Source of the DNA: Ferroacidibacillus organovorans
GTDB taxonomy: Bacteria > Bacillota > Bacilli > Alicyclobacillales > SLC66
Direction: 5' to 3'
DNA: 55,329 nucleotides
Assembly: GCF_001642725.1 (NCBI RefSeq)
Contig: NZ_LSUQ01000013.1
Span: 1-55,329 of the forward strand
In this document: positions 1-15,264 of the stretch, one piece after another
Layout of the letters: each line of letters begins with the position of its first letter
How positions within the stretch are numbered: position 1 is the first letter of the stretch
Program-made: the position numbers and the translations under genes
The notes under the pieces: model-generated
What the model saw: the letters and a program-made list of their open reading frames with translations, nothing else
Told to the model about the DNA's origin: nothing
Databases searched by the model: none

Positions 1-57
1 TGGCTCTATTCGATTAACGAGGTGGCTCTAAACTATTAACCTAGTGGTCCTACGGCA
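1..57 (-). mobile_element. Possible IS21-like terminal repeat region running off the window
   Basis: Minus strand begins TG at 57. Two copies of TGGCTCTAnnnnATTAAC at 22-bp spacing (1-18, 23-40), resembling the tandem transposase-binding repeats of IS21-family ends. Confidence 0.35.
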
Positions 58-172
58 CTGAAATATTCACTTGACCCCTGTATCATTGGGATCCTCCTCC
101 TCCTTTTTGGGCTATGAACCCATTTTCATAGCAATCGGAGGAAGGCTCCATAGACACATTTTGTGGGGAAGT

Positions 173-763
173 TCAGTTTGCAAAATATTGATTTGAGTGG
201 CGTAGGCGGGATAGGCCGTGAAACAACCCAACGCTCACTCCCATTGGCAGTGCTTCGCGCCAAATCCGTTTCCACAGCCCAATCCGCTTCACAGGACGGT
301 CTCTGCCACGGGGTATCTCCAAGGAGGGCTTGGCGACGAGGACACACTGCCAGAACCCTGTTTCCATCGAATCCATCCGCGCCTTCCACCGTTTATACCA
401 TCGCCAAACGGTTTTGGAGGAAATGGGGCCGGAAGGGTAGGGGACCGATTCGCCCACTTGCTCCAGCGACTGCCCGTTTTCGTGTTCAAGCAATACATTT
501 TCTTGCAAATCCCATATACATCGCTGGTAACGGCCAATGAAAGATGGATATACAGTTACGGTTTTACCGCAGGCTTCACACCTGAACCGGAACAAACGAA
601 TGCGGTCTCTGTGCTTCCCGCAACACACATCCCGCTCGAACTGATCGTGCTTACTTAAGGGATGTTGCCTCCCACAACGGGTACACGTTTGTGGACGAAT
701 TATGGATAGATCTGGATGCTCACAAAACTCCAAATAAGAATGGACATTTGATAACGGATCCAT
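173..763 (-). CDS. DUF6431-like zinc-ribbon protein typical of Mu/IS481-like transposons
   Basis: CxxC motifs (CTRCG, RFRCEACGKTVTVYPSF) and an HTH-like KTVWRW segment, the layout of the accessory gene that precedes DDE transposases. Confidence 0.65.
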   Translation of the reverse strand: MDPLSNVHSYLEFCEHPDLSIIRPQTCTRCGRQHPLSKHDQFERDVCCGKHRDRIRLFRFRCEACGKTVTVYPSFIGRYQRCIWDLQENVLLEHENGQSLEQVGESVPYPSGPISSKTVWRWYKRWKARMDSMETGFWQCVLVAKPSLEIPRGRDRPVKRIGLWKRIWREALPMGVSVGLFHGLSRLRHSNQYFAN

Positions 764-810
764 GTATTATGTAGGCATATTCAGGCGTGCGTAAGCACGA
801 CCTTGTGGAG

Positions 811-855
811 AGAAGAGAGACCAGGCCGCCAAAACCTGAGGTCTCTCTTCTTTTA
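811..855. terminator. Strong hairpin upstream of the DUF6431-like gene
   Basis: AGAAGAGAGACC(811-822)...GGTCTCTCTTCT(840-851) followed by TTTT on +. Confidence 0.5.
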
Positions 856-943
856 TGCCATTACCCTCCCGCTGATGGTTGTCGTTTCAACGATGATCTG
901 CATACGACAATCATTGACAAAATCCTTCGTCAAACGGGGCGAC

Positions 944-982
944 AAAAAACCGCTCATCCGCGGTCAAACAGCGTGAGCGGCT
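944..982 (-). terminator. Rho-independent terminator-like hairpin
   Basis: Minus strand CCGCTCA...TGAGCGG followed by TTTTTT. Confidence 0.4.
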
Positions 983-1420
983 ACAGAATAGCTCGATGAA
1001 TTGAAACAGGAGATCATCAATCAGATGGTGTAATTTCACGTTTACAATATGGGATTTAAGTGAAACGAAAATCTTCGGGAATACTTGCCTTGCTTGAATT
1101 TTTGGCTATTTATTGGTCGTTCCATATATATTTATGAATAATCAAACGTATTATGTCAAATCTAACAGCTTTCGTGGGTGCGCTAAGAGAAAGGTAAAAA
1201 GGATAGCTCAGCATTAGCGCGGTATTGACCGACTCTGCGAAAATATCAGAGGACAATATGTTATGGATATCTCAAAACTGAGCACACGGATGACGTTGTT
1301 CGAGTGGTAACAGCGGAGAACGGGTAAGAGGAAAGAGTAGGAATTAGGTTGTGAATCAATTTGATAGAGAATGTATGCTGTGTGATAATAAAAGGAAAAC
1401 TTGAAAAGGAGATTTTCCGT

Positions 1421-3166
1421 TTGGGCAATTTTAAAAAATGGGCTTGGATAGAATCTAGTCTGCTCGGCCTTATCTCTTTGGTCGTATATTTAGCTAATGG
1501 TATATTTACTAACCCATCAGGTGACGTCGTACCTGCATCTGTGCTTCCATTTTCCATAATACTGCATCATAATTTTTATATCGGACGCTATCTTATGTTT
1601 TCTCATCAAGATAGCCCCTATTATTTGGATGCCTTCAAAAATCATTTTATTTCTGCATATCCCATAGGCTCTGCCATCACGGCGCTCCCAGTTTATTTAA
1701 TATTTCTGCTCTTTGGCGGTCATGCGACTGCTATCACGGGCGCGATTCTGGGAAAGATTAGTGCGTCGATTATTTCTGGCGCATCAGTCATTTGGCTTTA
1801 TTGGACTATGGAACGTCTATCGATCAAGCGGTCAGTAAAAATTGTTTTCGCTATTCTCTACGGCTTGGGATCCGAGACGATGTCTATAAGCAGTCAAGGT
1901 TTGTGGCAACACGGTCCTGCACAATTTTGGATAGTAGGATTCTTGTATTTTGTGGTCATGGCCTATGATAGAGAAAGAGCACGAGCTTGGATTTATATCT
2001 GTACCGGAATATCGGTAGGTATGATATTGCTGTCGCGTCCCGTAGATTTACTTTTAATTCTTCCCTTCCTTATTTTACTTAGGAATCAGCATATTAGGAA
2101 AAACATATGGATAACAGTGGCTACATTCGTTCCTTTTCTTGCTTTTAACATGGCTTATGATCATTATTTCCATGGCCACATAGTTTCAACTGGATATGGA
2201 TCGGTGGCTAAAGAATTGTCATTGTTCAGTTTTCCTCTCATTCCCGGTCTGCTAGGAAATCTCTTCAGCCCTAGCAAAGGCCTGTTCGTGTTCATGCCAT
2301 GGGCTCTCATATCGTTTGCGTGGATCACCAGATTTCGCTCACAACGATTTAATAATTCAATTTATTTCCCTGCGCTTCTCTCTTTTTTTCCTTACATCGT
2401 ACTGTACGCTCTTTATTATCAATGGTCAGCTGGGGCCAGTTACGGACCTAGATACATGACTGATGTACTACCGCTGTTAGCAATATTAGGATCCGGATAT
2501 ATGACTAACTTAAATATAGCTAATTTAACATTACTAAAACTCAACACGTTTCGTGCATTGACTGGGCTAGTAATAGCATGGAGTATTGCGCTGCAACTTC
2601 TTGGAACTTATGTGCCTGGCGGTTCTGCGTGGAATGATGCATACAGTCCGAATAATTTCTTTACTCCGCTATGGATAATTCGAGGAAGTGAAGCGGCATA
2701 TTATTTCAATACACTCAAGTCATCGTTGTTGCCAGCAGCGCCAATTACTAAACCAGATGCCATTTTCTCGAATATGCAATTGTTATACAAACCGTATATT
2801 TACGAAAAAGGAATCATGCCATCTATTTTTATTCCTAATACAACATATGTCGGTACCGTTGTGGTAAAGAACGCTGGTAGCCAAGGATGGTCTGCGTATC
2901 CGTCGTCATCCGGGGGCGATGTCGTCCATTTTAGCTATAACGTGTGGCAACATAGAAAACTGATTGCGTCAGTTTCAGGCCTACGCTCAGCCCTGCTCCA
3001 CTCCGTGCAGCCTGGTAAAAGTATAAAGATTTACTTTCATTTTGTTACTCCAAGCATTCCAGGAAAATATACCTATGTGTTTACCCTCGTTGACGAAGGA
3101 GTGTGTTGGTTTCAAAACGAATTGAGTTCCACCAACGCGGACATCGCAACTATTAAAGTTGGTTAA
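1421..3166 (+). CDS. Polytopic GT-C-type (PMT/ArnT-like) glycosyltransferase with C-terminal extracellular Ig-like domain
   Basis: TTG at 1421 after AAGGAG. About 12 hydrophobic segments; SGD luminal loop, SQGLWQH, SPSKGLF, YGPRY motifs; C-terminal VVVKNAGSQGW...PGKYTYVFTLVDEG Ig-like pattern. Visibly AT-rich. Confidence 0.65.
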   Translation: MGNFKKWAWIESSLLGLISLVVYLANGIFTNPSGDVVPASVLPFSIILHHNFYIGRYLMFSHQDSPYYLDAFKNHFISAYPIGSAITALPVYLIFLLFGGHATAITGAILGKISASIISGASVIWLYWTMERLSIKRSVKIVFAILYGLGSETMSISSQGLWQHGPAQFWIVGFLYFVVMAYDRERARAWIYICTGISVGMILLSRPVDLLLILPFLILLRNQHIRKNIWITVATFVPFLAFNMAYDHYFHGHIVSTGYGSVAKELSLFSFPLIPGLLGNLFSPSKGLFVFMPWALISFAWITRFRSQRFNNSIYFPALLSFFPYIVLYALYYQWSAGASYGPRYMTDVLPLLAILGSGYMTNLNIANLTLLKLNTFRALTGLVIAWSIALQLLGTYVPGGSAWNDAYSPNNFFTPLWIIRGSEAAYYFNTLKSSLLPAAPITKPDAIFSNMQLLYKPYIYEKGIMPSIFIPNTTYVGTVVVKNAGSQGWSAYPSSSGGDVVHFSYNVWQHRKLIASVSGLRSALLHSVQPGKSIKIYFHFVTPSIPGKYTYVFTLVDEGVCWFQNELSSTNADIATIKVG

Positions 3167-3429
3167 TAAGTCAATCTGAATTCGGTAACTTCAGGTAGCC
3201 GGTAAATGTGGACGTCTTATCGGGGTCAATGGTGATAATTGTCGTGCTAAAACTTACCCTTGAATCCCGACAGCATTGTTCAGTAGTGGCATGTTCGTAA
3301 GCGTGAAAGGGAAAGTAACTGTATTGGGTGTCGTCATTTCGTTTTCGTATGCGTCCAAATAGAAGATGAATTTCTTCGTTGTTCCGAGATCGGGCTATGC
3401 ACAATAAATAGTGATTTAGCTTTGACAGT

Positions 3430-3462
3430 GAAACACATGGAGTTGTGCCATGTGTTTCTTTT
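3430..3462 (+). terminator. Terminator-like hairpin upstream of rml operon
   Basis: GAAACACATGG-7nt-CCATGTGTTTC followed by TTTT. Confidence 0.5.
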
Positions 3463-3520
3463 GTGTGTAGTAGGAGTATGATAAAGTCAACATTGAGAAT
3501 GACTTGGACGTGGTGATGGC

Positions 3521-4384
3521 ATGAAGGTATTGATCGCAGGTGCGGGCGGTATGCTTGGCACGGATTTGCAGAAGGCGTTTGCAGACACGCCATGCATCGC
3601 GCTCACGCGCAATGAACTGGATATCACGCAGGAGCTTGCGGTGCGCGAGGCGGTTCAGATGCATCGTCCGGACGTGATTCTAAACGCGGCGGCGTACACG
3701 AATGTGGATCGCTGTGAGACGGAGATTGATCAGGCATACGCGGTGAATGCGGTCGGCGCGCGCAATGTGGCGGTCGCCGCCGAGCAGATTGGTGCGCGGT
3801 TGGTTCATGTGAGCACGGATTATGTGTTTCCAGGGGTCAGTGACCGTCCGTATCGCGAGGAAGACGAAACGGGACCGATCGGGGAGTATGGCCGGAGCAA
3901 ACTCGCCGGAGAACAGCTCGTGAGAAGCTTATGTAAAAAACATTATATTGTGCGAACGTCTTGGCTTTATGGAAAACACGGCCCGAATTTCGTGAAAACG
4001 ATGTTGAGGATAGGGAGAGAACAGGGTGCGGCGCGCGTCGTGGATGACCAGGTGGGGAGTCCGACGTATACGGCCGATCTGGCGCAGGCGATTCGGACGC
4101 TTGTCGAGACGCCGCAGTACGGCGTTTACCATCTGTCCAATCAGGGCGCCTGTTCGTGGCACGCGTTCGCGGAGGATATTTTTACGCTGGCGGGCGTCGA
4201 TGTAAACCTTCAGGCGATCAAGACACACGAATTTCCGCGCCCCGCAAAACGCCCGGCGTATTCGGTGATGGACAACATGATGTGGCGACTAAGCGGCCAT
4301 GCGTCGCTTCGCCACTACCGCGCGGCACTCGTTGCCTATTTGCGGGAGACGGACGAGATTCAGGGAGGAGATCACACCTCGTGA
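3521..4384 (+). CDS. rfbD: dTDP-4-dehydrorhamnose reductase
   Basis: GAGGMLG Rossmann motif, STDYVF, YGRSK, DQVGSPT, RPAYSV. Confidence 0.95.
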   Translation: MKVLIAGAGGMLGTDLQKAFADTPCIALTRNELDITQELAVREAVQMHRPDVILNAAAYTNVDRCETEIDQAYAVNAVGARNVAVAAEQIGARLVHVSTDYVFPGVSDRPYREEDETGPIGEYGRSKLAGEQLVRSLCKKHYIVRTSWLYGKHGPNFVKTMLRIGREQGAARVVDDQVGSPTYTADLAQAIRTLVETPQYGVYHLSNQGACSWHAFAEDIFTLAGVDVNLQAIKTHEFPRPAKRPAYSVMDNMMWRLSGHASLRHYRAALVAYLRETDEIQGGDHTS

Positions 4385-5445
4385 AGGCGCTTATTCTAAG
4401 TGGAGGTACAGGGTCGCGTTTGCGACCGCTCACGTACACGGGCGCAAAGCAACTGATCCCTGTGGCGAACAAACCGATCTTGTTTTATGCGATTGAAGCG
4501 ATCCGCGAGGCCGGCATCACGGAGATCGGCATGATCGTCGGAGAAACGGGAGCCGAGATTGAGCGCGTGGTTGGTGATGGACAAGCGTTTGGTGTGAAGA
4601 TCACGTACATACCGCAGGAGGCGCCGCTCGGGCTTGCGCACGCAGTCAAGATCGCGGAACCGTTTATCGGAGCGGACGATTTTCTCATGTTTCTCGGGGA
4701 CAATTTGGTGCGTGACGGGGTACGCGCGTTTTCTGAGCAGTTTCAAACGAGCAAGCCAAACGGCATGATTCTTTTGAGTCGCGTACCCAATCCACAAAGG
4801 TTTGGCGTGGCGGAGATTCAAGGCGGTCAGGTTACACGACTTATCGAGAAGCCGAAGGTTCCGCCGAGCGACTTGGCGCTGGTGGGTGTGTACTTGTTTG
4901 ACCGCTCGATCTTTCGCGCGGTCAACGAGATTGCGCCGTCGGCGCGCGGAGAGCTTGAGATCACCGATGCGATCCAGCACCTGATCGATCACGGCTACCG
5001 CGTCGAGGCGCACATCATCGACGGTTGGTGGAAAGACACGGGGAAGCCGGAAGACATGCTGGAGGCTAACCGCATGATGGTCGAGAACATCACGCCTTCG
5101 TGTGACGGAAAGGTCGATCAACATTCACAGGTGATCGGTCGCGCATGCATCGCGTCGGGCGCGGTGATTGAGAATAGTGTGATTCGCGGCCCTGTCGTGA
5201 TTGGGGCAAACGCGGTGATCAGAAATTCGTATATCGGGCCATTCACGAGCATCAGCGAGGGTGTGCGGATCGAAGGCAGCGAGCTTGAAAACAGCATCAT
5301 CCTGCAAGATACGGTGATCGAGTTTATTCCGACAAGGATCGACAGCAGCCTGATCGGGAAGAACGTTCACATCTCCAAGGTGATTGAACGGCCGAAGGCA
5401 CTGACGTTTGTGCTCGGGGATAACAGCCGCGCCGAAGTGCAGTAG
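4381..5445 (+). CDS. rfbA: Glucose-1-phosphate thymidylyltransferase, long form with C-terminal left-handed beta-helix
   Basis: GTG at 4381 after GGAGGA, overlapping rfbD stop. GGTGSRLRPLT..KQL, EKP, RGELEITD, WWKDTG and hexapeptide tail. Confidence 0.92.
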   Translation: MKALILSGGTGSRLRPLTYTGAKQLIPVANKPILFYAIEAIREAGITEIGMIVGETGAEIERVVGDGQAFGVKITYIPQEAPLGLAHAVKIAEPFIGADDFLMFLGDNLVRDGVRAFSEQFQTSKPNGMILLSRVPNPQRFGVAEIQGGQVTRLIEKPKVPPSDLALVGVYLFDRSIFRAVNEIAPSARGELEITDAIQHLIDHGYRVEAHIIDGWWKDTGKPEDMLEANRMMVENITPSCDGKVDQHSQVIGRACIASGAVIENSVIRGPVVIGANAVIRNSYIGPFTSISEGVRIEGSELENSIILQDTVIEFIPTRIDSSLIGKNVHISKVIERPKALTFVLGDNSRAEVQ

Positions 5446-5513
5446 GGAGAATACGCTGTAGAGCGACGCGTGCTGTGAGGTGCATAAGCGTAGACTTGGA
5501 AACGGGGGATGGC

Positions 5514-6488
5514 ATGGTTTCGCGACTGTTGGTGACTGGTGGCGCAGGCTTTATTGGTTGTCATTTTATTCGCATAATGCTTGAGACGCATTCGGATCTG
5601 CACATTGTAAACCTTGACGCGCTTACGTATGCGGCCAATCGCGAGGCATTGCGTTCTTTCGACGGAATTCCGCGCTATACGTTTGTGCAAGGGGACATCA
5701 CCGACGCGGTACTTGTTGATCGCCTGATGCAGCAGGTGGACGGAGTGGTCAACTTTGCCGCTGAATCGCACGTCGATCGCAGCATCGCCGATCCGGGAAT
5801 TTTCGTAAAGACGAACGTGTTGGGGACGCAGGTGCTGCTTTGTGCGGCGAGACAGCATGGCGTGAAGCGCTATCTGCAAGTGTCGACGGATGAGGTGTAC
5901 GGGACGCTTGGCGCAAAAGGGCACTTCACGGAAGAAACGCCGCTTGCCGCGAACAGCCCATACTCGGCGAGCAAGGCGGGCGCCGATTTGATGGTGCGCG
6001 CGTATCACGAGACGTTTGGCCTTCCGACGCTGATCACGCGCTGCTCGAACAACTATGGACCTTACCAGCATGACGAGAAGTTGATCCCTACGCTGATTCG
6101 AAAAGCACTGCGGAATGAACTTCTGCCAATCTATGGCGACGGACAGAATGTGCGCGATTGGCTGTTTGTGGAGGATCACTGTCGCGCGATTGACCTTGTG
6201 CTGCGTGAAGGAACGGTCGGTCAGGTGTATAACGTAGGTGGACACAACGAGTGGAAAAATATTGATATCGCTAGATTGATTCTAAGTATGCTAGGGAAGT
6301 CGGAATCGCTGATCTCGTATGTGGATGACCGTCTGGGGCATGACCGCCGCTATGCGATTGACGCAAAGAAGATGCAGGATGTGTTTGGCTGGGTACCTGA
6401 CGTGACGTTTGAGCAGGGAATTCAGTCGACGATCGCGTGGTATGCCGAGCATTACGCCACGTCGAGCGCGAGGAGTGAAGAGCGATGA
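5514..6488 (+). CDS. rfbB: dTDP-glucose 4,6-dehydratase
   Basis: GGAGFIG, AAESHVDRSI, STDEVYG, YSASK, NNYGPYQ, GHDRRYA. Start moved to ATG 5514. Confidence 0.95.
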   Translation: MVSRLLVTGGAGFIGCHFIRIMLETHSDLHIVNLDALTYAANREALRSFDGIPRYTFVQGDITDAVLVDRLMQQVDGVVNFAAESHVDRSIADPGIFVKTNVLGTQVLLCAARQHGVKRYLQVSTDEVYGTLGAKGHFTEETPLAANSPYSASKAGADLMVRAYHETFGLPTLITRCSNNYGPYQHDEKLIPTLIRKALRNELLPIYGDGQNVRDWLFVEDHCRAIDLVLREGTVGQVYNVGGHNEWKNIDIARLILSMLGKSESLISYVDDRLGHDRRYAIDAKKMQDVFGWVPDVTFEQGIQSTIAWYAEHYATSSARSEER

Positions 6489-7027
6489 AGGTGGAACCGC
6501 TAGGATTGCCAGGCGTCTTTTTGATTACGCCAACGGCGCACGGCGACGCGCGCGGATTCTTTATGGAGAGTTATCGCCGTGACGTTCTCTTGGCGCACGG
6601 GGTCGACATCGAATTCGTGCAGGACAATCACTCGCTGTCCGCACAAAAAGGTACGGTGCGAGGGCTCCACTACCAGGAAGAGTCGATGGCCCAGACGAAG
6701 CTGTTGAGAGTACTGACAGGTTCCGTGTATGATGTAGCAGTGGACATTCGCCGCGATTCGCCGACGTATGGCAAATGGGTCGGTGTGACCTTGAGCGCGG
6801 AGAACCGCCAGCAGATCTTGATTCCGAAAGGGTTCGCACACGGCTTTTGCACGCTAGAACCAAACACACAGATCCACTACAAAGTCGACGCCTACTATTC
6901 CTCGGCACACGACCGCGGCATTCGCTGGAACGACCCGGCGATTGGGATCGACTGGCCCGTGACGGAGGCAGAAGCTGTGCTGTCTGCGAAGGATGCGGCG
7001 TCGCCGATGCTGAGTTTCTTAGAATGA
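6485..7027 (+). CDS. rfbC: dTDP-4-dehydrorhamnose 3,5-epimerase
   Basis: DARGFFME, QDNHS, RGLHYQ, GFAHGF, WNDPAIGIDWP. Confidence 0.95.
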   Translation: MKVEPLGLPGVFLITPTAHGDARGFFMESYRRDVLLAHGVDIEFVQDNHSLSAQKGTVRGLHYQEESMAQTKLLRVLTGSVYDVAVDIRRDSPTYGKWVGVTLSAENRQQILIPKGFAHGFCTLEPNTQIHYKVDAYYSSAHDRGIRWNDPAIGIDWPVTEAEAVLSAKDAASPMLSFLE

Positions 7028-7135
7028 GGTCACGGACAGAGATACGATAGGATCATAATCGCTCCATTTGTTTATGGTCACTGAGGACGCTCTGTGGGAA
7101 AATGAGTTTGAATCGATCAAATTGGAGGGGATAGC

Positions 7136-7822
7136 TTGCTCAGTGACCGAGATTTAAAAAGACTGGCGCTTACGCATGAACTTATCACTCCGTTTGATCT
7201 TAATGATTTTGAAGGTGCAACGATCAATCTAAGGCTTGGACAAACGATTCGAAAGTATATCTCGGATGAATCGATCATCCTCGGAAAAGAAGTTTTCGAA
7301 GATGATTATTTGGAGATCGATCTCACGGAGAATGATTTTTTCCTGGAACCAGGAGAGTCTGTTTTGATACAAACCTATGAATTTATTAACGTTCCAGAGT
7401 CGCTAAGTGCGCGTGTTTATGAACGATATAGTATCAAATCACTGGGCCTTATGATTAGTCCGGCGCATTACCTCACTCCCGGATATCGCGGAAATATCGG
7501 CCTTCTGGCGATAAACCACTCTGCTGTACCGATCAGGCTGACGCCAGGTATCAAGATTTGTCAGATCGGATTCTTTGCGTTGTCGTCCATTCCCTTAAAA
7601 CCCTATGAGAAACAAGATGGTAAGTATATGGACGCCAAGGATGTAAGCATTTCGAAGTTGCACTTGGATAAGGATATCCAGGAATTTTTAAAACAAAAGG
7701 GTATCTCGCGTGTGTCTGATGATATGGCCAAAGCGCTGGGAGATCATTTAATGGGGCATATTCGTGAATCTGCAAAGCGACTTGCCGATACCATTCGATA
7801 TGAACAGGATTTATTCGCGTGA
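7136..7822 (+). CDS. dCTP deaminase/dUTPase-fold protein with substituted catalytic residues and a 50-aa histone-fold-like C-terminal extension
   Basis: MLSDRDL, INLRLG, PGYRGNI, PGIKICQ, GKY motifs of trimeric Dcd. GRSSLAR reads ERYSIKS and the LE motif reads LL. TTG start after GGAGGGG. Confidence 0.75.
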   Translation: MLSDRDLKRLALTHELITPFDLNDFEGATINLRLGQTIRKYISDESIILGKEVFEDDYLEIDLTENDFFLEPGESVLIQTYEFINVPESLSARVYERYSIKSLGLMISPAHYLTPGYRGNIGLLAINHSAVPIRLTPGIKICQIGFFALSSIPLKPYEKQDGKYMDAKDVSISKLHLDKDIQEFLKQKGISRVSDDMAKALGDHLMGHIRESAKRLADTIRYEQDLFA

Positions 7823-8175
7823 GTGATTTGAGGGATATTGTAACTCGACATGTTGAAGACCAGCTTCGTAGTGAGTTCCCAGTGAAAGAATTCAGTGACG
7901 AGCAATTGTCTAAAATTCTAGATAATAAACGCGCAGATGGCAGTATCAATCGCGAAGTCAATCGTATTCTTGACACTTTTTTAGAGGAAATTGAAGAGAA
8001 CTCTTCCAAGAAAAAAAGAAGACGCATCCTCAATTTCTCATTTTCAGCCGCTGGCCTGATCCTCACAACGATCATCGGATATGCCGTAAACATGACCAAT
8101 TGGTCTATGGTGATTGGTATGATCATTGCGATGTTGATCGTCAATGCGTTGTTCTTATTTTTTGCTGATCAATAA
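7819..8175 (+). CDS. Small protein with two C-terminal transmembrane helices, translationally coupled to the Dcd-like gene
   Basis: GTGA overlap; soluble helical N-terminus, then KKKRRR and two hydrophobic stretches. Confidence 0.75.
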   Translation: MSDLRDIVTRHVEDQLRSEFPVKEFSDEQLSKILDNKRADGSINREVNRILDTFLEEIEENSSKKKRRRILNFSFSAAGLILTTIIGYAVNMTNWSMVIGMIIAMLIVNALFLFFADQ

Positions 8176-8276
8176 GCTGTTACTTTGTGAAGGAGGCGCT
8201 GATGTAGAGTTGTATGTGGATGAAATGGGATTTGGCGCGTATTGTATTTCATCTTCTTACAGTGTCCAACCATCAA

Positions 8277-8305
8277 TTGATACGTTCAATTACACGTGTT
8301 ACAAT
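8277..8305 (+). promoter_or_regulatory. SigA-type promoter of hicAB with palindromic operator
   Basis: TTGATA-17nt-TACAAT, with palindrome ACACGTGT (8292-8299) in the spacer. Confidence 0.55.
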
Positions 8306-8328
8306 GAGAGTCAGGGGCGATGGAGACG

Positions 8329-8529
8329 ATGAAAAGCTATTCGTCCAGAGAGCTTATAAAAATCATCGAAGCGGACGGATGGTATTTCGTCAGAGCAGTT
8401 GGCGACCACCACCAGTACAAACATCCAACAAAACTCGGCAAAGTTACCATCACTCATCCTGTGAAAGATGTACCTCTCGGGACGGTTAGAAGCCTATTTA
8501 AGCAGGCGAAATTGCCCATACCTCAATAA
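8329..8529 (+). CDS. hicA: HicA family mRNA interferase toxin
   Basis: SSRELIKIIEADGW, GDHHQYKHP, VTITHP, GTVRS. Confidence 0.9.
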   Translation: MKSYSSRELIKIIEADGWYFVRAVGDHHQYKHPTKLGKVTITHPVKDVPLGTVRSLFKQAKLPIPQ

Positions 8530-8589
8530 GACTTTCAATACCATCGAATACGCGCAGTCCGGTAGAAAGTGCATAGGAGATGATTCTGC

Positions 8590-9000
8590 GTGACGAAAGA
8601 CCGCTACGTGTATCCAGCCATTTTTGATTATGCAGATGATGGTATTTCCATCCAGTTTCCAGATCTCCCCGGCTGTTTGCCATGCGCACAGAGCACGGAG
8701 GTTGCAATGAAAAATGCGCGCGAAGCGATGGCACTCCACTTGTACGGAATGGAACAAGATTGCGATGCAATTCCGGAGGCAACACCCATTCATAAACTAC
8801 GAGCTGCCGAGAATCAGGCTATCGTGCTCGTTGAGGCGTGGATGCCACCTTTCCGGGACGAAATAGAAAAGAAGGCCGTTAAAAAGACACTGACCATCCC
8901 GAAGTGGTTGGATGACTTGGCGGTTGATCAGCACGTAAATTTTTCTCACCTGCTTCAGGATGCGCTTAAGCGATACCTCGGTGTCACAGATAAACAATGA
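8590..9000 (+). CDS. hicB: HicB family antitoxin
   Basis: YPAIF, FPDLPGC, AREAMALHL, VKKTLTIPKWL, VNFS. Confidence 0.9.
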   Translation: MTKDRYVYPAIFDYADDGISIQFPDLPGCLPCAQSTEVAMKNAREAMALHLYGMEQDCDAIPEATPIHKLRAAENQAIVLVEAWMPPFRDEIEKKAVKKTLTIPKWLDDLAVDQHVNFSHLLQDALKRYLGVTDKQ

Positions 9001-9016
9001 AGGATAGGAGTCGCAT

Positions 9017-9742
9017 CTATCTCGCGATCGTATGATGCCGCATGTCCCTCTTTACGACGCTGGCGGCGCTTCTCAACTGTTCTTCGCTCGCAGGGGAGAG
9101 TTCGAGTGCAACAGATAGCTTATGCAGGGTACGCAGCGGATCGTCGAGCAGCGTGTGATAATCGATGATCGTGGCCTCGTCCCAAGCGGTATCCCCTTGA
9201 TCGGCGCGCGTTTGCGAGACAAGGGCGAGGTGTGCGTGGATCGCGTTCATGTGTAACTGCCAGAGGGCGAGGGATTTCTCCTGCGCGAAACCGTCGCGCA
9301 CGGCGAGGGATGCGGCGACTTCGTGGGGGTTGCGGGTCATGACGACGTAGCGCGCGTCGAGGTCGAGCGTCTCGATCAGTCTCGCCCAAAGCGGCAGCAG
9401 CAGGCAGGTGCGCGGGTCTTTGAACGCGAACACGTCGGTGTTCTGAAACTCATACGCGATGAGCATGGTCATGATCCCTAGTGCTTCGTTCGCTATGTCG
9501 GTCTCCCACCACGCGTCGGGCATGGGTTCCGTGCTGTGCCAGGTTCGCCCTATCGTTTGCAAGAGGCTTTCCTGCACAATCACCAGGTTCTCATTCTCAA
9601 AGTAGCCGTCCGGGTTGTCTGCCGCCCCTTTTAGCGTCACGCCGAGGGGCACGCCGAGTCTGTGAATCATGTGGGTGAGCACGGACGTCCCGCTGCGGTG
9701 CATCCCGAGAATGAGAATGAGCTTTTGTTTGGCGTTTGGCAT
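9017..9742 (-). CDS. Sulfotransferase family protein
   Basis: ILGMHRSGTS PAPS-binding loop, NPDGYFE, KDPR, RNPHEVAASL. Confidence 0.8.
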   Translation of the reverse strand: MPNAKQKLILILGMHRSGTSVLTHMIHRLGVPLGVTLKGAADNPDGYFENENLVIVQESLLQTIGRTWHSTEPMPDAWWETDIANEALGIMTMLIAYEFQNTDVFAFKDPRTCLLLPLWARLIETLDLDARYVVMTRNPHEVAASLAVRDGFAQEKSLALWQLHMNAIHAHLALVSQTRADQGDTAWDEATIIDYHTLLDDPLRTLHKLSVALELSPASEEQLRSAASVVKRDMRHHTIAR

Positions 9743-9804
9743 CTGCGATTTCCTTTCCCCTATCGCGCAACGGCGAACTCGCGCGGCTGCGTGATAAACC
9801 CCTT

Positions 9805-9861
9805 CCTATACCTGCAAACACATCCTGATCCTGCAAGCTTATCCTAAACCTGCAAGCTTTA
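9805..9861. repeat. Three imperfect 19-bp tandem repeats in a divergent promoter region
   Basis: CCTATACCTGCAAACACAT / CCTGATCCTGCAAGCTTAT / CCTAAACCTGCAAGCTTTA. Confidence 0.75.
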
Positions 9862-9977
9862 AAAAAGATTAAAATTTTCTAAGCCTTGAAACCTACCGAA
9901 GATTTTCATCGTCTTTTCATATGCTTGGTGTTCCCTTTTGGTATGTTCAACCAAAGCATAAACACGGAGGATATTTC

Positions 9978-11942
9978 ATGCATCGAAATAAACGTACCGT
10001 TACATCCCTTTCCATCGCGCTTTCCCTCGCGTCCGCTCTCCCGCTCGTCTCGATGCAATCGCAAAACGCGTTTGCCAATTCCTCTGCGTCCTCTCCCTCT
10101 GTGACGTCCGCCACCTACGGAACGGCCACAGGTGCGCCCGCCCCGACGATCGCGCCGACAGGAACGACAACAGGGACGACCACGACCTCGCCCAGCAGTG
10201 GAGGGTCATCGAGTAGTACAGGCACGTCCCCCTCATCGCCTGGCGGTTCGGGTTCGACGCTTACTTCACCGTCGTCGACTTTGACCCCACCCTCGTCCGG
10301 CACAAGTGTGATCACAAGCACACCGTCCACGCCTGTCAACCCGGTTACCGGCGCGCCGATTCTCTCCGGCAGTCAGGGCAACCCGTCGGCAAATGGTTTA
10401 TCGTCTTCTACAGGCGCGGCGCCACTCGTCAATTTCGCGCATGTCGGGTCTGTTTCGTGGACCTCAAATGGACCGGCCGACGCGCAGTTTCAGAAGCTTG
10501 AAAAGCGCTACGACGCGAAGTTGCTTGGCAATCCGCACTGGCACGGCTTTCTCAACCAAGAGGGCCGCACGATCACGGTAAACCTCTATTATTTGCATAC
10601 GATCAACGGCCTGTCGATCCAGATGGAACAGGACCCAAAGGCGGGCATTTTCTACCCGTCCCACGTTGACTTCGAGGTCAATCTGTATGGCAAGTGGTAC
10701 ATGCTCGGCTCCGTGCCGACGAAGATTCCGCAGAGCGCGAGCGGCAACTCGACGCAGTGGTTCGCCGTGCAGACACACAACTTGCAGGCGAGTGAGTTTC
10801 GTATCGTGTTCCCCGTGACCAACTGGGTGTTCACGCGCAATCTCGGCATCTGGGGGAGTGACTTCTCCGTCCCCACGTCGCAATCGCTGCCGAATCTGCC
10901 GCAAGTGCCGAAACCGTTCACTCAGATGATGTCCATCTTTGATCCGCGCTCTGCGGGGATTCGCAACATGATGCTCGCGTACAGCGGAAGCTACGGACAG
11001 ATGGGGACGTGGACGACGAAAGATTTCCTGCCTGTCACATCGTACCTGCTGCAAAACGGGCAGATCGGCGGGCGGCTGTTTGACACGGTACTCTTTCTTC
11101 CGTATACCCTCGCGCAAAACCAGCAGGCGTGGCTGAGCTATCTCAATAATCTGTTCGCCAAAAATGAGCAGTTGAGCGCGCTCAACCAAGCGATGGTAAA
11201 GACGGATCAGGGCATGAACAAGTTTGGGTACAACCCATACCCAAAGGAAAAAGTGGTAATCGCGCTACCGTATCCGTCATACCATTCAGGAGCGTGGGGG
11301 CTTTTGGGCGGACAGATCCTCTCGTTTACGCCGACGCCGTCTGATCCAGGGAGTGTCGCGAACCGCCTGACGGCGATCCAGTGGTATCTGAATACGTTCC
11401 TCGCGAAGTGGAAGCAGGCTGGATTCAGCAATCTATCCCTCACCGGATTCTATTTGAACGATGAGACGGTGCACTACACGTTCCCCGGCGAGGTGAACCT
11501 GATTCAGGGTACGAGCCAGATGGTGCAGAAGGCGGGCTACCCGCTCTTTTGGATTCCCTTTTATGACGCGGGTGGGATCGAGGACTGGCAGAGTCTCGGC
11601 ATTAACGCCGCGTGGATTCAGCCGAACTATGCGATTCAAGGCAAGGCGGCGCCCGCAGGCCGGGTTGCCAATACGGTGCAGCTCGCCAAAGACAACGGGA
11701 TGGGCGTGGAGCTTGAACTGCCGACGGCGGCGCTGACCAGCCCCCTCTATCGGAATCTGTATCTCTCCAGTCTCCAACAGTTCCAGCAGGCGGGGGCGGC
11801 GGGCTCGGTGTCGCACGCGATGTATGCGGGATCGAAGGTTTTGACGCAGGCGGCCTACTCGACGAATCCGGCGGTGCGCGCGCTCTACGATCAAACGTAC
11901 GCGTTTCTCGCCAATCAATCGAATGGGGCGCAGGTGAATTGA
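9978..11942 (+). CDS. Secreted protein: Ser/Thr/Pro linker, discoidin-like beta domain, DUF4855-like putative glycoside hydrolase barrel
   Basis: ATG after GGAGG; signal peptide ending AFA; LFDTVLFL, VVIALPYP, LFWIPFY, QPNY, MGVELE motifs. Confidence 0.65.
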   Translation: MHRNKRTVTSLSIALSLASALPLVSMQSQNAFANSSASSPSVTSATYGTATGAPAPTIAPTGTTTGTTTTSPSSGGSSSSTGTSPSSPGGSGSTLTSPSSTLTPPSSGTSVITSTPSTPVNPVTGAPILSGSQGNPSANGLSSSTGAAPLVNFAHVGSVSWTSNGPADAQFQKLEKRYDAKLLGNPHWHGFLNQEGRTITVNLYYLHTINGLSIQMEQDPKAGIFYPSHVDFEVNLYGKWYMLGSVPTKIPQSASGNSTQWFAVQTHNLQASEFRIVFPVTNWVFTRNLGIWGSDFSVPTSQSLPNLPQVPKPFTQMMSIFDPRSAGIRNMMLAYSGSYGQMGTWTTKDFLPVTSYLLQNGQIGGRLFDTVLFLPYTLAQNQQAWLSYLNNLFAKNEQLSALNQAMVKTDQGMNKFGYNPYPKEKVVIALPYPSYHSGAWGLLGGQILSFTPTPSDPGSVANRLTAIQWYLNTFLAKWKQAGFSNLSLTGFYLNDETVHYTFPGEVNLIQGTSQMVQKAGYPLFWIPFYDAGGIEDWQSLGINAAWIQPNYAIQGKAAPAGRVANTVQLAKDNGMGVELELPTAALTSPLYRNLYLSSLQQFQQAGAAGSVSHAMYAGSKVLTQAAYSTNPAVRALYDQTYAFLANQSNGAQVN

Positions 11943-12098
11943 GCGGAGGCTCGCGGCAGTGAGGTGGATGCGCACGCTTTATGATGTGCCGAAAATTGTC
12001 ACTGCCGCAGGGCGACCCCCAAAAAAGGATAGGGGTGCCACGAAAGCATTCGTAGAGACTTGAGAGAGTCCAAGAATCTTTCTGAGGGAGTGTCACCA

Positions 12099-13742
12099 AT
12101 GAATCAACGATTTGGCAAATTAGCATCAGGTTTGAGTGCGGCAACGCTCGTGCTCGGAATGGTCGCAGTGCCGACCGCAGCTTTCGCAAAAGAAAAACAT
12201 ACGGTTAAGTCACACGCTACGAAGTATATGGATCACCACAAATCGAAGAAAGATCACGGCGATGGAAATGGAAATGGAAATGGAAACAGCAATTTTGGCG
12301 GAGGCTTTTATGGAAGCGGTTGGCTCACATTGCCGACGCTCCCCACACCGCCGACACCGCCGGCTGGGCAAGTACCACCTGTGGGGCCGACGCCACCGAT
12401 TGGAACAACGCCGCCACCTGTTAACTTGGGCGCGGGTGGCCTTGCTTGGGTGGAGGATGGCAAGGCGCCGAAACACGGCGGGGACAACCACTGGGGCGGC
12501 AGGTTTGGACGGTATGACGCGACGGTGCTGGTCAGTCTGATGCAGCGGGCGGAAAACTACTATGATCCGATCGTGACGGCAGAAGTGCAGAAGGTTCAGG
12601 CGGAACTGCAGAGCATCTCGGCGACGGTGAGCGCGTCGGCAACGGTGGCGGCAACCGCGTCGGAACTCACGGTCAATCAGCAGATTCAACAGTTGGCAAC
12701 GCAGATCAGCACGGAGACGGATCCGCAGGCGCTCGCGGCGGATGTACAGCAGTTGGAGCAATTGGCAAGCCAACTCCACGATATGGTGCAATCGGAAGAT
12801 AACCAGGATAACTCGGGAACGCTCCAGGCGGATGCGCAGCGTCTGCAGGATGTGCAGGATCAGTATGTCCGGGTGCTTACGAATCTCAAAGACGTGTTGG
12901 CGCGTCTGCAAGCGGGCGGCTACTCGCGCGGCGACTTGCACGAGGCGTACGGTGTGCTTCGCGAATACAGCAGTGTCAGCATCAACGATGTGCGCATGTT
13001 AGAGCGGATTGACATGCAGCTCGCCATGTACGCGGGGCAGTCGGGAACGGCCACGACGGGTACGACGACGGGCACTACGACCACGACGGGTACCACGACA
13101 GGTACGACTACCGCGACGTCCGGGAGCACGGTGACGCTCTCGACCGGAACGGTGACGGCGGGTCAAGCCGTGAATGTCTCGGGCACGGTGTATGACGCGA
13201 ACGGATCTGTGGTTGCCAATGCGCCTGTGGTTGTGACGTTTGACGGGATTACGGCGACGGGCACGACGAATCTGAGCGGCCAATACGCAGTATCGGTGAC
13301 GCCGACTGCGGCGGTTACGAACAGTGCGGTAGCGGTTGTCGCGGCTGGCAGCACGATCAGCACGGCGGCTGACGTCGCGAGTGTGACGGCGGGCGCTCCG
13401 GCGATCCTCCGAAGCAATGACACGTCGGTGGAATCTGTTCAGGCGAACAATGCGCAGCCACTCATCACGTATCAGTTGCTTGACGCGTATGGCAACCCGG
13501 TTTCCGGGCAGACGATCAACTTTGCGGTGCGTCAAGCGGTCGGATCGACCACGGAGGCGAGCAATGAAGTGACCGAGGCGGCAGGCAGCCTGTCTGCGCC
13601 GAGCGCTGTGACGAATGCGCAAGGCCAGGCAACAGTGACCTACACGGCGAGCGCGACGGCTGACGCGGATGGCGATCTGCTTGACACCATCGTCGCGACG
13701 AACAACAACCTCTCGAACACGAGTGCGCAGTTCAGCTATTAA
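12099..13742 (+). CDS. Secreted surface protein with Pro-rich, coiled-coil, Thr-rich and C-terminal Ig-like (Big_1-type) regions
   Basis: Signal peptide ending AFA; GN and TTTG low-complexity repeats; DAYGNPVSGQTINF and TNAQGQATVTYT invasin-like Ig motifs. Confidence 0.7.
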   Translation: MNQRFGKLASGLSAATLVLGMVAVPTAAFAKEKHTVKSHATKYMDHHKSKKDHGDGNGNGNGNSNFGGGFYGSGWLTLPTLPTPPTPPAGQVPPVGPTPPIGTTPPPVNLGAGGLAWVEDGKAPKHGGDNHWGGRFGRYDATVLVSLMQRAENYYDPIVTAEVQKVQAELQSISATVSASATVAATASELTVNQQIQQLATQISTETDPQALAADVQQLEQLASQLHDMVQSEDNQDNSGTLQADAQRLQDVQDQYVRVLTNLKDVLARLQAGGYSRGDLHEAYGVLREYSSVSINDVRMLERIDMQLAMYAGQSGTATTGTTTGTTTTTGTTTGTTTATSGSTVTLSTGTVTAGQAVNVSGTVYDANGSVVANAPVVVTFDGITATGTTNLSGQYAVSVTPTAAVTNSAVAVVAAGSTISTAADVASVTAGAPAILRSNDTSVESVQANNAQPLITYQLLDAYGNPVSGQTINFAVRQAVGSTTEASNEVTEAAGSLSAPSAVTNAQGQATVTYTASATADADGDLLDTIVATNNNLSNTSAQFSY

Positions 13743-13794
13743 AGGAAGCGAATGTGCGTGTGCGTGTGAGCATGCATGGCAGTGCGTAGATCAG

Positions 13795-13830
13795 GAAGGG
13801 GCTCCCGAGATCGCTCGGGGGCCTCTTTTT
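13795..13830 (+). terminator. Rho-independent terminator
   Basis: GGGGCTCCCGAG-loop-CTCGGGGGCCTC followed by TTTTT. Confidence 0.7.
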
Positions 13831-13914
13831 AACAAGCGCACAGGCTTTTTAGTGTGTGGTTGATATAATGGGTATAACGGTTTGAAACGGGGATAGAAAT
13901 AGGGGGAGTGAGCG

Positions 13915-14187
13915 ATGTCAACTGGAGTTGAACCTATGGATAGAGTTCATCGTAAAATAACGAGGATTGGGAATAGCCTGGGCGTTACATTCGCAAAGGA
14001 TTCACTGCGAAAACTGAATTTAAACTTAGGGGACGATGTTGATATCATCGTGAATGAAAAAGCAGGTGAAATTGTGATTCGCAAGGCGATTTCGCTTCCT
14101 CAAGGGCTTGATCCAGCATTCTTTGAAACGCTGGAAACAAACGCAAATCGCTATCGTCAGACGATTGAAGGATTGAAGGATCGATGA
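13915..14187 (+). CDS. AbrB/MazE-family antitoxin
   Basis: RKITRIGNSLGVT motif; ATGA overlap with the toxin gene. Confidence 0.85.
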   Translation: MSTGVEPMDRVHRKITRIGNSLGVTFAKDSLRKLNLNLGDDVDIIVNEKAGEIVIRKAISLPQGLDPAFFETLETNANRYRQTIEGLKDR

Positions 14188-14606
14188 TCAAGTATCTAAC
14201 CCCCGAAGAGGTCATTGCGATTCATCTCTATGTAATTCATGAATTTTCTCCGGGTGAGCAGAGTGGTGTAGCGTTTCCAGACATGCTCGATTCTGCGATC
14301 CATCGACCTAGACATTCAGCTTTCGGTGAAGATGCATATCCTGGAATATTTGAAAAAGCGGCTGCATTGTTTGCGTCGCTCGCACAAAATCATGCTTTTC
14401 ACAATGCAAACAAAAGAACGGCCTTTCTCTCGTTGCTACAGTTTCTTAGTTATAACGGATATGTTTTTTTGATGGATCAAAATATGAGGTTATTCGCGAT
14501 GACATTGGACAGCAAAAGGTCGTTCCTTTTCATGGCTAACCATCCTCTGATATTGGGAGAGTGTCGAACTTCACGAGAACATGCACAACATTACATCAAA
14601 TCATGA
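14184..14606 (+). CDS. doc: Doc/Fic family toxin, C-terminus possibly aberrant
   Basis: HAFHNANKRT Fic motif and FGEDAYP..FEKAAAL. Sequence after about 14480 no longer resembles Doc and overlaps a convergent gene. Confidence 0.8.
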   Translation: MIKYLTPEEVIAIHLYVIHEFSPGEQSGVAFPDMLDSAIHRPRHSAFGEDAYPGIFEKAAALFASLAQNHAFHNANKRTAFLSLLQFLSYNGYVFLMDQNMRLFAMTLDSKRSFLFMANHPLILGECRTSREHAQHYIKS

Positions 14607-14920
14607 ATTTCGATTCCCGTCCGCAGGATTTCGTCAACGATGCCAAGACGCTCCTCAAGTTCCTTGTTCGTAAAAGCTAAGGGTTCTATATCGACTGGGT
14701 ATTCCATGGCGTACCGCAATAAATAGGTAATTCCTTCTACTCGTGACATGGACTCGAAGTGGTTGGAGAAAATAGCGAGATCGACATCGCTTTCTGAATT
14801 AAAATCTCCCTTCGCAAAGGAGCCAAATAGAATTGCTTTGCTCACGGGTATCTGACGTTTTATTTTCTCTAGATAGTCGACGATGGTTAACTTTATTTCT
14901 TGAGGGACATGACCGTCCAA
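14591..14920 (-). CDS. Minimal nucleotidyltransferase (MNT), no HEPN partner seen
   Basis: ILFGSFAKG....SDVDLAI polymerase-beta motif; start uncertain. Confidence 0.8.
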   Translation of the reverse strand: MDGHVPQEIKLTIVDYLEKIKRQIPVSKAILFGSFAKGDFNSESDVDLAIFSNHFESMSRVEGITYLLRYAMEYPVDIEPLAFTNKELEERLGIVDEILRTGIEIHDLM

Positions 14921-15081
14921 TGCCAGTGTGGGTTCCTCCGATCATCTTTGTCATCACTTTTAATGCTAAGTATACACTTGTTAATGCTCATTGAGTTCAG
15001 AAACTGAGGATTCCGTGTGCGAGTAGGGGGGCAATAATATATAATGAACGTACATATTTTGTGTTCTAAAGGGGAGGTTCT

Positions 15082-15264
15082 ATGAGCGCGACTGTCAATC
15101 GACTTGTGGAGGAATTCAAGAGACTGTCTGACGAAGAAAAGCGGGAAATGATTGAGAAGCTTGAGGCAGAGGAATTTTACCGTCAGGTTCTTCAATATTC
15201 ACTGCGTGACTGGGATTATGCAAAGGACGATGCCTACAATGACCTATTTAAACCGTTAGGGTGA
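15082..15264 (+). CDS. Small acidic antitoxin-like protein, orphan
   Basis: Strong RBS GGGGAGG; ends WDYAKDDAYNDL, a tail seen in small antitoxins upstream of MazF/PemK genes; no toxin ORF follows. Confidence 0.5.
   Translation: MSATVNRLVEEFKRLSDEEKREMIEKLEAEEFYRQVLQYSLRDWDYAKDDAYNDLFKPLG

Follow-up and report, generated by a model that had tools for sequence, protein, structure and literature searches.

A putative Dcd-fold pseudoenzyme and its coupled membrane protein form a mobile two-gene cassette with a candidate role in phage exclusion

Positions 7136..8175 of a 55,329-nucleotide stretch of DNA from Ferroacidibacillus organovorans (contig NZ_LSUQ01000013.1, forward strand; the whole stretch is called the window below) contain two overlapping genes, A and B, that encode, respectively, a homolog of the dCTP deaminase Dcd and a small membrane protein. 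We find that these genes form a well-defined mobile cassette of a pseudoenzyme and a membrane protein and that the product of A is part of a larger, overlooked clade of Dcd-like proteins; a role in defense and a nucleotide ligand are hypothesized. Specifically, we consider it possible, although short of probable, that the pair serves prophages or plasmids as a module for exclusion or abortive infection, in which a nucleotide-binding pseudoenzyme would regulate a membrane effector. This role is proposed on account of the catalytically dead fold in which the lid residues are kept, the obligate coupling of A to a membrane hairpin, to which it is also found fused, and the carriage of the pair on mobile elements.

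Gene A: a Dcd scaffold with altered catalytic positions

Gene A (7136..7822, forward strand) is an open reading frame (ORF) with a TTG start that encodes 228 amino acids. Its product matches the Pfam domain DCD (PF22769, 2.7e-23) and the NCBIfam equivalog model dCTP_deam (TIGR02274; 113.1 bits, with a trusted cut-off of 92.8), and phmmer aligns it with Escherichia coli Dcd at E 6.6e-15. Scores with the dUTPase models are well under the respective cut-offs (TIGR00576, 27.3 vs 102.55 bits). An AlphaFold2 (AF2) model computed on 85 relatives (pLDDT 93.2, pTM 0.84) comprises a barrel (residues 1-150), a lid (150-178) and two added helices (179-188 and 195-227). The top Foldseek matches of A in the PDB are structures of Dcd and the bifunctional Dcd-Dut, with E about 1e-16 and TM-scores by target of 0.81-0.91 (4a6a, E 1.2e-16; 4xjc, TM by target 0.90). 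Thus, A shares the fold of, and clear homology with, the enzymes of E. coli (1xs1/1xs4), Mycobacterium tuberculosis (2qxx/4a6a) and Bacillus halodurans (4xjc). A fold search of BFVD returned only distant viral Dcd or dUTPase models, with identity of at most 24%, and was set aside.

The catalytic positions tell a different story. Residues were mapped through HMMER alignment to E. coli Dcd chains (1xs4 and 2j4h), with the numbering taken from the printed chain positions. The loop GRSSLAR (G109-R115) aligns with ERYSIKS of A (E96-S102; codons at 7421..7441, forward strand), IDPG (I127-G130) aligns with LTPG (L113-G116; 7472..7483, forward strand), and VLE aligns with GLL. Four positions of Dcd are replaced, namely, Ser111 by Y98, Arg115 by S102, Asp128 by T114, and Glu138 by L124, the codon for which is at 7505..7507 of the forward strand. 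In contrast, Arg110, Ser112, Tyr171 and Lys178 are kept as R97, S99, Y157 and K163, as is the equivalent of Tyr179; the Tyr171 and Lys178 equivalents belong to the retained lid motif PYEKQDGKY (residues 156-164; 7601..7627, forward strand). An earlier note on this DNA, made by eye from the letters alone, had named the three motif changes, the replacement of Ser111, Arg115 and Glu138 by Tyr, Ser and Leu, and the persistence of Arg110, Ser112 and the GKY lid within an intact Dcd scaffold; the alignments, the AF2 model and the Foldseek matches bear out all of this and add Asp128 to the losses. A further difference from Dcd and Dcd-Dut is a C-terminal helical extension of about 50 residues (7670..7816, forward strand; positions from the AF2 secondary structure), which canonical Dcd lacks, ending near residue 180 in an alignment of dead and canonical sequences.

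In Dcd, Ser111 and Arg115 of the GRSSxxR loop are the deamination residues, and Arg110, Tyr171 and Lys178 grip the triphosphate, whereas the motif-III Asp of trimeric dUTPases and Dcd-Dut activates the attacking water. The catalytic assignment of Glu138 is supported here indirectly, by the existing PDB entries of E138A or E138D variants with bound nucleotide (1xs4 with dCTP, 2j4q with dTTP and 2v9x with dUTP). In the family of A, Thr or Asn takes the place of the motif-III Asp (equivalent to Asp128), and Glu is missing at the E138 column from all 24 rows of the family alignment. Judged by its sequence, then, A is a pseudoenzyme of the Dcd fold that has lost the deamination residues, and given the failure of four defining catalytic or ligand positions, we do not file it as a dCTP deaminase. 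The retention of the Arg110, Tyr171 and Lys178 equivalents makes it plausible that A still binds a nucleoside triphosphate.

These features are family-wide. A word-indexed search identified 89 relatives of A at E <= 1e-3 among 524 candidates, mostly of 225-250 amino acids, with a few shorter forms or fragments, and 40-69% identical to A over at least 90% of its length; all the named relatives come from Bacillales genera. Across the 85 aligned members, E96, S108, P115, G119, N127, Q143, P156, Y157, Q160, Y164, S173 and D178 are invariant, R97 is nearly so, and the consensus at the GRSSxxR loop is ERYS(I/V)K(L/S).

The membrane partner and its linkage to A

Gene B (7819..8175, forward strand; GTG start, 118 amino acids) overlaps A by the tetranucleotide GTGA at 7819..7822 of the forward strand, which holds the start of B and the stop of A and couples the two translationally. 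The protein consists of an acidic domain of three helices (residues 1-60, net charge -6), a basic stretch, KKKRRR (64-69), and two transmembrane (TM) segments, TM1 (70-90) and TM2 (97-116), with mean Kyte-Doolittle hydropathy of 1.71 and 2.67, respectively, joined by the loop NMTNWS (91-96); there is an Asn in the middle of TM2. AF2 places helices at 4-19, 27-40, 42-60, 63-91 and 95-117 (pLDDT 77). The same plan recurs in all 12 homologs compared with the B of the window: the charge of the N-domain ranges from -3 to -6 and that of the basic stretch from +3 to +6, the loop has six residues with an invariant Asn (N91) and a near-invariant Trp (W95), and the mid-helix residue of TM2 is Asn, His or Gln. 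By the positive-inside rule, the N-domain would be cytoplasmic and the loop would lie outside, so that B is best viewed as a probable small protein of the inner membrane that has an acidic helical domain in the cytoplasm, followed by a C-terminal two-helix hairpin. No Pfam, NCBIfam or PADLOC model matches B at its curated cut-off. The best ESM Atlas score for B, 0.80, is below the threshold of 0.9 adopted for leads and was not used. Word-index searches with B returned only 2 and 9 proteins, which sets a lower bound on the size of its family.

The linkage between the two genes was analyzed in 17 loci from a genome scan (L001-L017), in 16 of which a homolog of B is located directly 3' of A. Six of the loci (L004-L008 and L012) represent one element, sharing 99-100% identity across more than 4 kb (4-8 kb), so that 12 loci are independent. 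B is present in each of the 10 independent loci with a full-length A, so that the pairing with a two-TM gene, which the earlier note had seen once, holds in all of these. In 11 of 13 loci, including the window and a plasmid locus (L018), B begins within the 3' end of A, with 4-17 nucleotides in common; in the other two, gaps of 4-5 nucleotides separate the genes. Outside the pair, the independent loci share no DNA, and the flanks differ at every locus. Thus, A and B are translationally coupled and always occur together where A is full length. Both are real genes, A having 89 homologs with homologs of B directly downstream of them.

The connection between the two proteins extends to a natural fusion. 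P0118, a 207-residue protein that is a single cluster representative among the best 150 of an exhaustive profile search, is 33% identical to A over its first 146 residues (E 6e-33), and over its last 58 or so residues, hhalign matches it to the basic stretch of B and to the hairpin with its loop motif (probability 98.6, E 5.5e-16). The fusion lacks the lid and the C-terminal helices of A as well as the N-domain of B, and R97 is lost, too. From the parts that are missing in P0118, we infer that the lid and C-terminal helices of A and the N-domain of B could be the docking surfaces of the two-gene form, and propose that the helical extension of A docks B. A complex prediction for three copies of A with residues 1-70 of B scored 0.09 in both runs, with the mark at 0.32, and is counted neither way.

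Mobile contexts and the locus in the window

The surroundings of the pair were characterized by Pfam scans of 136 ORFs from the flanks, with small ORFs added later. Seven of the 12 independent loci are in prophages. The pair has an endolysin, a holin and an FtsK-like gene upstream in L001; is directly followed by XhlA and a TM protein in L009; comes after a DUF2800 nuclease, SSB, PolA and a holin-like gene in L010; has tape measure, Dit and holin genes directly upstream in L013; follows DNA ligase and SRAP genes and converges on a holin and an endolysin in L014; lies between baseplate and lysis genes, with an Acb2/Tad1-type gene next to B, in L016 (Gracilibacillus); and is directly upstream of a holin and an amidase in L017. 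Among the other loci, L002 has an IS200 transposase upstream, and the 6-kb contig of L003 yielded a single weak Pfam match among its flank ORFs. The pairs of the window and of L011 are bare chromosomal insertions, the latter between rlmH and greA with a GC content of 0.336 vs 0.514 around it. The GC content of the pair is below that of the flanks in the window, L011, L010 and L014. L018 is the megaplasmid pBpOF4-01 of Alkalihalophilus pseudofirmus, where the pair sits beside an IS4 transposase and copper-resistance genes; the element shared by L004-L008 and L012 is found on this megaplasmid as well.

The pair is thus a horizontally mobile two-gene cassette that is carried on prophages, on a megaplasmid element and in small AT-rich chromosomal islets. 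It behaves as mobile cargo, typically in an accessory slot by the lysis genes, and not as a classical resident of defense islands. With a soluble and a membrane protein encoded together in an operon that is conserved on mobile elements, the pair has the arrangement that characterizes sensor/membrane-effector abortive-infection modules.

The same positions have to be weighed for a function in the phage life cycle, whereby the pair would belong to or tune the lysis cassette, with B resembling a holin or antiholin and A tying the timing of lysis to the deoxynucleoside triphosphate (dNTP) pool or the state of DNA replication, and the chromosomal and plasmid copies being remnants. Holin, XhlA or endolysin genes adjoin the pair in L009, L010, L013, L014 and L017 (in L014, after a DUF1653 gene) and are within about 4 kb of it in L001 and L016, and B is a small two-TM protein with a charged cytoplasmic part. 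Proximity to holin and XhlA genes fits a lysis-related role as well as it fits the position of a moron, that is, an accessory gene. However, full-length pairs without a phage gene within 6 kb are found in the window, in L011, in L002 and in the plasmid element, and a holin match of their own already exists in L001, L013, L014, L016 and L017. Moreover, B matches no PHROG at E <= 0.01, holins are absent from its Pfam matches at E <= 0.1, and searches of the phage and plasmid collections gave no close family member except that on pBpOF4-01, none being found at better than 36% identity in 50,697 phage records. We therefore regard a role in lysis as unlikely.

Several observations on these loci are of separate interest. 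In L016, an 86-residue protein with the Acb2/Tad1 hairpin domain (7133-7390; PF24729, 9.8e-23) is encoded 96 nucleotides 3' of B and, by its sequence match, is of the anti-CBASS/anti-Thoeris sponge type; it is followed by a 99-codon ORF with the appearance of a TM protein and by a tyrosine recombinase. The cargo of the shared element includes the pair, cytochrome b5, GrpB, an M23 peptidase and copZ/copA. This element is present in assemblies of six Halalkalibacter or Alkalihalobacillus species in addition to the Alkalihalophilus megaplasmid, which reflects either very recent transfer or shared contamination of draft assemblies. In four loci (L011, 7068-7262; L013, 6553-6777; L014, 7044-7256; L017, 7065-7265), a DUF1653 gene (E 1e-20 to 5e-25) starts no more than about 20 nucleotides after B, and another is similarly placed at 4037-4267 of a phage contig discussed below (L023); the five genes encode 64-76 amino acids. 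The window has no DUF1653 gene after B, and the distribution suggests a three-gene variant in one subclade. For DUF1653, no solved structure was matched at E < 0.07, and a literature search gave no function.

In the window, a Shine-Dalgarno sequence, GGAGGGG (7124..7130, forward strand), is located 5 nucleotides before the TTG codon of A. The pair is part of an AT-rich islet (7030..8750; GC content 0.41-0.47) that comprises A, B and hicA: the GC content is 0.41-0.43 over 7001-8500, compared with 0.53-0.58 upstream and 0.53-0.60 downstream, and that of the pair itself is 0.416 vs 0.549 in the 4-kb flanks. The islet was probably acquired by horizontal transfer. On the upstream side are the dTDP-rhamnose genes rmlD, rmlA, rmlB and rfbC, the last of which encodes dTDP-4-dehydrorhamnose 3,5-epimerase (6485-7027, match 1.4e-71). 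On the 3' side are HicA (8320-8529, forward strand; HicA_toxin, 1.8e-19), HicB (8590-9000, forward strand; HicB_lk_antitox, 1.3e-13), a sulfotransferase and a DUF4855 protein. The coordinates, the GC content and the Pfam neighbors thus agree with the earlier description of an AT-rich two-gene unit with a GTGA overlap inserted between rfbC and hicAB. The HicA/HicB pair (8320..9000) is context and lies outside the cassette; no HicAB match was detected among the 136 flank proteins of the related loci. Elsewhere, the window consists of normal chromosomal DNA of an endospore-forming member of Bacillota (SASP, flagellar genes, SecA and PrfB).

A 16-nucleotide inverted repeat (7076-7091 / 7133-7148, 88% complementary), the 3' arm of which spans the start codon of A, was considered as a hairpin and dropped as not significant (RNA fold z = -1.31; 18 of 200 shuffles were as stable). 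Rfam gave no matches in 5000-16000 and no tRNA genes were found in 1-20000, which argues against an RNA antitoxin and a tRNA integration site, respectively. Two other AT-rich islets occur in the window. One (1000-3500, GC content 0.38-0.42) includes a 601-codon ORF (1361-3166, forward strand) directly 5' of rmlD, which has no match in Pfam, PHROG or PADLOC and was probably acquired horizontally as well. The other (13750-15250, GC content 0.42-0.45) contains two pairs that resemble toxin-antitoxin modules: a Doc/Fic-domain protein (14184-14603, 3.9e-17) preceded by a 90-codon ORF and, on the opposite strand, an MNT-type nucleotidyltransferase (14594-14920, 4.4e-12) with a 100-residue partner. 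The Doc and MNT proteins match the PADLOC candidates PDC-S23 and PDC-S09, respectively.

This neighborhood, with HicAB adjoining the pair and the Doc and MNT modules about 6 kb away, is one of the arguments for a purely addictive function, in which B would be a membrane toxin and A its protein antitoxin, stabilizing prophages and plasmids with no sensing of phage. The gene order, with the larger soluble gene first and a small, toxic-looking gene second and overlapping by 4-8 nucleotides, resembles that of type II toxin-antitoxin operons, and carriage on a plasmid and on prophages is in line with such a role. However, a plain antitoxin has no need of the conserved nucleotide-lid residues of A, and the natural fusion of A and B is hard to square with a mechanism based on a labile antitoxin. 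Addiction alone appears quite unlikely as an explanation of the cassette.

The wider clade, known systems and a proposed function

Gene A is not an isolated oddity among Dcd homologs. A search with the family profile retrieved 9441 cluster representatives at E <= 1e-3, and of the top 151, the 141 with at least 150 core residues were classed by the columns of Asp128 and Glu138, ten short rows being omitted. Eighty have both residues (canonical), 52 have neither, which is how we define dead, and 9 are mixed. A tree was built quickly with FastTree, without the motif columns, and many of its forks are unsupported; on it, the dead label requires 3 changes, compared with a mean of 42.3 after shuffling, and none of 500 shuffles was as low. 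A groups with the 52 dead sequences, apart from the 80 canonical ones. Dead sequences mostly read xR(S/N)SxxR, xNPG and P(L/I)x(I/L). In an alignment of 28 sequences, dead as well as canonical, R97, Y157, K163 and Y164 do not vary.

The dead proteins have tails of 14 to 210 residues. Many members are 225-236 amino acids long and have the same helical extension as A; P0189 combines the Dcd-like domain with helices and a pair of TM segments without homology to those of B; and P0144, P0176 and P0181 end in tails of 160-210 helical residues. The tail of P0176 (residues 217-345) matches the PADLOC candidate PDC-M14B at 1.5e-6, and that of P0181 matches it at 0.0015; neither A nor B of the window does, and these two proteins belong to a different dead subclade. 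An ESM Atlas search with the P0176 tail (best score 0.80; TCAD2 cluster, 0.78) remained under the lead threshold and was not used.

Some members of the dead clade are encoded by phages. In L020 (3938-4796), the Mu-like prophage BK070156.1 of Helicobacter trogontum, a 190-residue protein has Asn for the Asp and Ile for the Glu; its gene overlaps a 100-codon ORF for a soluble helical protein without TM segments, and the two sit between early genes (Gam) and morphogenesis genes. In L023, an unverified 84.7-kb gut phage contig, the product of a dead Dcd-like gene is 26% identical to A (E 1e-20), and 1 nucleotide after this gene comes that for a 143-residue protein that combines a helical N-domain with two hydrophobic segments; DUF1653 is next. 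The 143-residue protein matches the B profile weakly (probability 57.6, E 1e-4). Two plasmids (L019 and L021) and a phage contig (L022) were dropped from the set as carriers of canonical Dcd. The dcd gene of L019 (Priestia megaterium plasmid NZ_CP071473.1, locus 1883-5609), with GRSS, DPG and TLE present, has as neighbors an rpsN paralog, a (2Fe-2S) ferredoxin, a GTP-binding protein and folE2, a gene set that, we presume, resembles zinc-limitation (Zur) regulons and hints at Dcd as a zinc-independent route to dUTP or dUMP.

The presence of dead-clade proteins in the phage genomes L020 and L023, together with the adjacency of the L016 pair to the Acb2/Tad1-type sponge gene, raises the prospect that the pair works against the host: a dead Dcd trimer could sequester a nucleotide as a sponge, or poison the host Dcd or dUTPase through mixed trimers, to the benefit of the phage. 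A constant, sometimes fused membrane partner is unexpected of a sponge, however, and there are copies outside phages too; counter-defense or host takeover is, in our estimate, very unlikely. The comparison with the wider clade also bears on whether A could be an active enzyme of altered chemistry, with the invariant Glu96 and Asn127 forming a new catalytic center that acts on a nucleotide substrate at the membrane. E96 is invariant in the 85 family members, the pocket-forming scaffold and the lid are kept, and the TIGR02274 score exceeds the trusted cut-off. Nevertheless, the wider dead clade does not keep E96 but has N, T, S, P, Q, A or G in its place, as many as four distinct catalytic or ligand positions of Dcd were lost together, and the fusion P0118 dispenses with both R97 and the lid. 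All this makes an active A highly improbable.

Systems of similar layout are known. Lambda RexA/RexB is a prophage two-gene system of a cytosolic sensor and a membrane effector, and CBASS and Pycsar include two-TM effectors. The A-B pair is likewise a prophage-carried, translationally coupled combination of a soluble protein with a small multi-helix membrane protein, but it shows no similarity to the PADLOC models of these systems and is not accompanied by a signal-producing cyclase, and its putative sensor would be a pseudoenzyme of the Dcd fold. Among viruses, dUTPase-related pseudoenzymes of herpesviruses have kept the superfamily fold after the loss of catalysis and act in host-virus conflict, which provides a precedent for the reuse of the dUTPase/Dcd superfamily fold by A. 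These proteins differ from A in being eukaryotic viral proteins with monomeric, duplicated domains and no membrane partner, and the homology is only at the superfamily level.

The dCTP deaminases that function in defense are zinc-dependent proteins of the cytidine-deaminase fold. The involvement of dCTP or dNTP metabolism in conflict with phages is a theme that they share with the proposed role of A, but their PADLOC models are not matched by A, which has another fold and lacks the catalytic residues; the distinction from these enzymes that the earlier note had drawn is therefore sound. These enzymes, the system of Tal et al. and AvcD, are reported to be active and to deplete dCTP (10.1101/2021.04.26.441389; PMC10511110).

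The nearest printed item, within the accessible part of that source, is a computational prediction by DefensePredictor (PMC13092281). The text on its Fig. 6F mentions an unvalidated predicted system with 'a dUTPase' domain, and its Table S4 lists WP_002991659.1, a 283-residue 'deoxycytidine triphosphate deaminase', as a predicted novel defense gene that was not validated. By eye, this protein is Dcd-like, with the catalytic motifs missing and one hydrophobic segment; it differs from A in being a single fused protein from another genome, and the likeness is by eye only. The accessions of the plasmid pair, WP_003320838 and WP_003320839, do not occur in the accessible part of the supplement text. 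Table S3 contains rows named 'dCTP deaminase', from which we draw no conclusion. A literature search found no text on PDC-M14, and the main text of Payne et al. 2024 contains no mention of PDC-M14, dUTPase or dCTP. A full-text literature search found no paper that describes a Dcd-fold pseudoenzyme with a membrane partner.

If the cassette is an exclusion or abortive-infection module, the following sequence of events can be envisaged. A would form a homotrimer, as its solved relatives do, and would still bind a pyrimidine (deoxy)nucleoside triphosphate; the choice among dUTP, dCTP and a modified nucleotide is purely conjectural. The C-terminal helices of A would hold the cytoplasmic domain of B, and ordering of the lid upon binding or loss of the ligand would shift these adjoining helices. 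The hairpins of B, three per trimer, would then be released or rearranged and might oligomerize to cause an ion leak or a membrane block. As a result, the infection would be aborted, or a superinfecting phage would be blocked at the membrane, which would benefit the host as well as the prophage or plasmid that carries the cassette. The architectures of P0189, of P0176 with its tail and of the L023 locus are analogous and speak for such a module, as do the Acb2/Tad1-type gene next to the pair in L016 and HicAB next to it in the window. A broader version of this model, which we consider doubtful, is that the dead trimer monitors the pool of (deoxy)pyrimidine triphosphates, such as dUTP or a modified dNTP made by the phage, and uses its lid and added helices to open a three-hairpin pore in the membrane, and that A represents one branch of a large clade with interchangeable effector tails (TM hairpins, PDC-M14B-like tails and small helical partners), which would constitute a new family of nucleotide-pool-sensing immune modules.

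Several observations weigh against a defensive module. Both the loss of catalysis and the retention of nucleotide binding are read from sequence, and the homotrimer from homology. At position 114, the window copy has Thr where at least 90% of the 85 family members have Asn. The family is small, with only 24 of 1.84 billion cluster representatives at E <= 1e-30 to the family profile. Some copies have decayed: in L003, A is 5'-truncated, having lost about 35 N-terminal codons, with B intact, and in L015, A is reduced to two fragments and B is gone. A simple scan of the forward strand between rfbC and A detected no sigma-70-like promoter. A has no PADLOC match at E <= 0.1, and the sole PADLOC match of B, to LeoBC, is weak (4.6e-4). 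The position by phage lysis cassettes, with the pair abutting holin or XhlA genes in L009, L010, L013 and L017, leaves room for a role in the phage life cycle. Finally, among 112 flank proteins, PADLOC recognized no defense system, only scattered domain-level matches. The enrichment in defense islands that the earlier note had put forward as a check was not borne out; its interpretation of the trimeric fold as repurposed is partly favored, by the residue loss, the retention of the lid, the linkage and the mobility of the pair, and is weakened by this absence.

Whatever the function, the name 'dCTP deaminase' given to the family of A in RefSeq and JGI is likely wrong, a systematic misannotation that stems from TIGR02274 scores above the cut-off, and reconstructions of pyrimidine metabolism for these Bacillales may be wrong as a consequence. 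The loss of both the Asp and the Glu is shared by 52 of the 141 best-scoring cluster representatives analyzed, and the natural A-B fusion and the varied tails offer clear constructs for experiments. If the proposed function is correct, the cassette would bring a new sensor fold into bacterial immunity, with a housekeeping nucleotide enzyme turned into a pseudoenzyme, and direct sensing of the dNTP pool, as opposed to its depletion, would become testable. If the wider clade indeed senses nucleotide pools, an immune family would have been hidden by annotation under the name of a metabolic enzyme.

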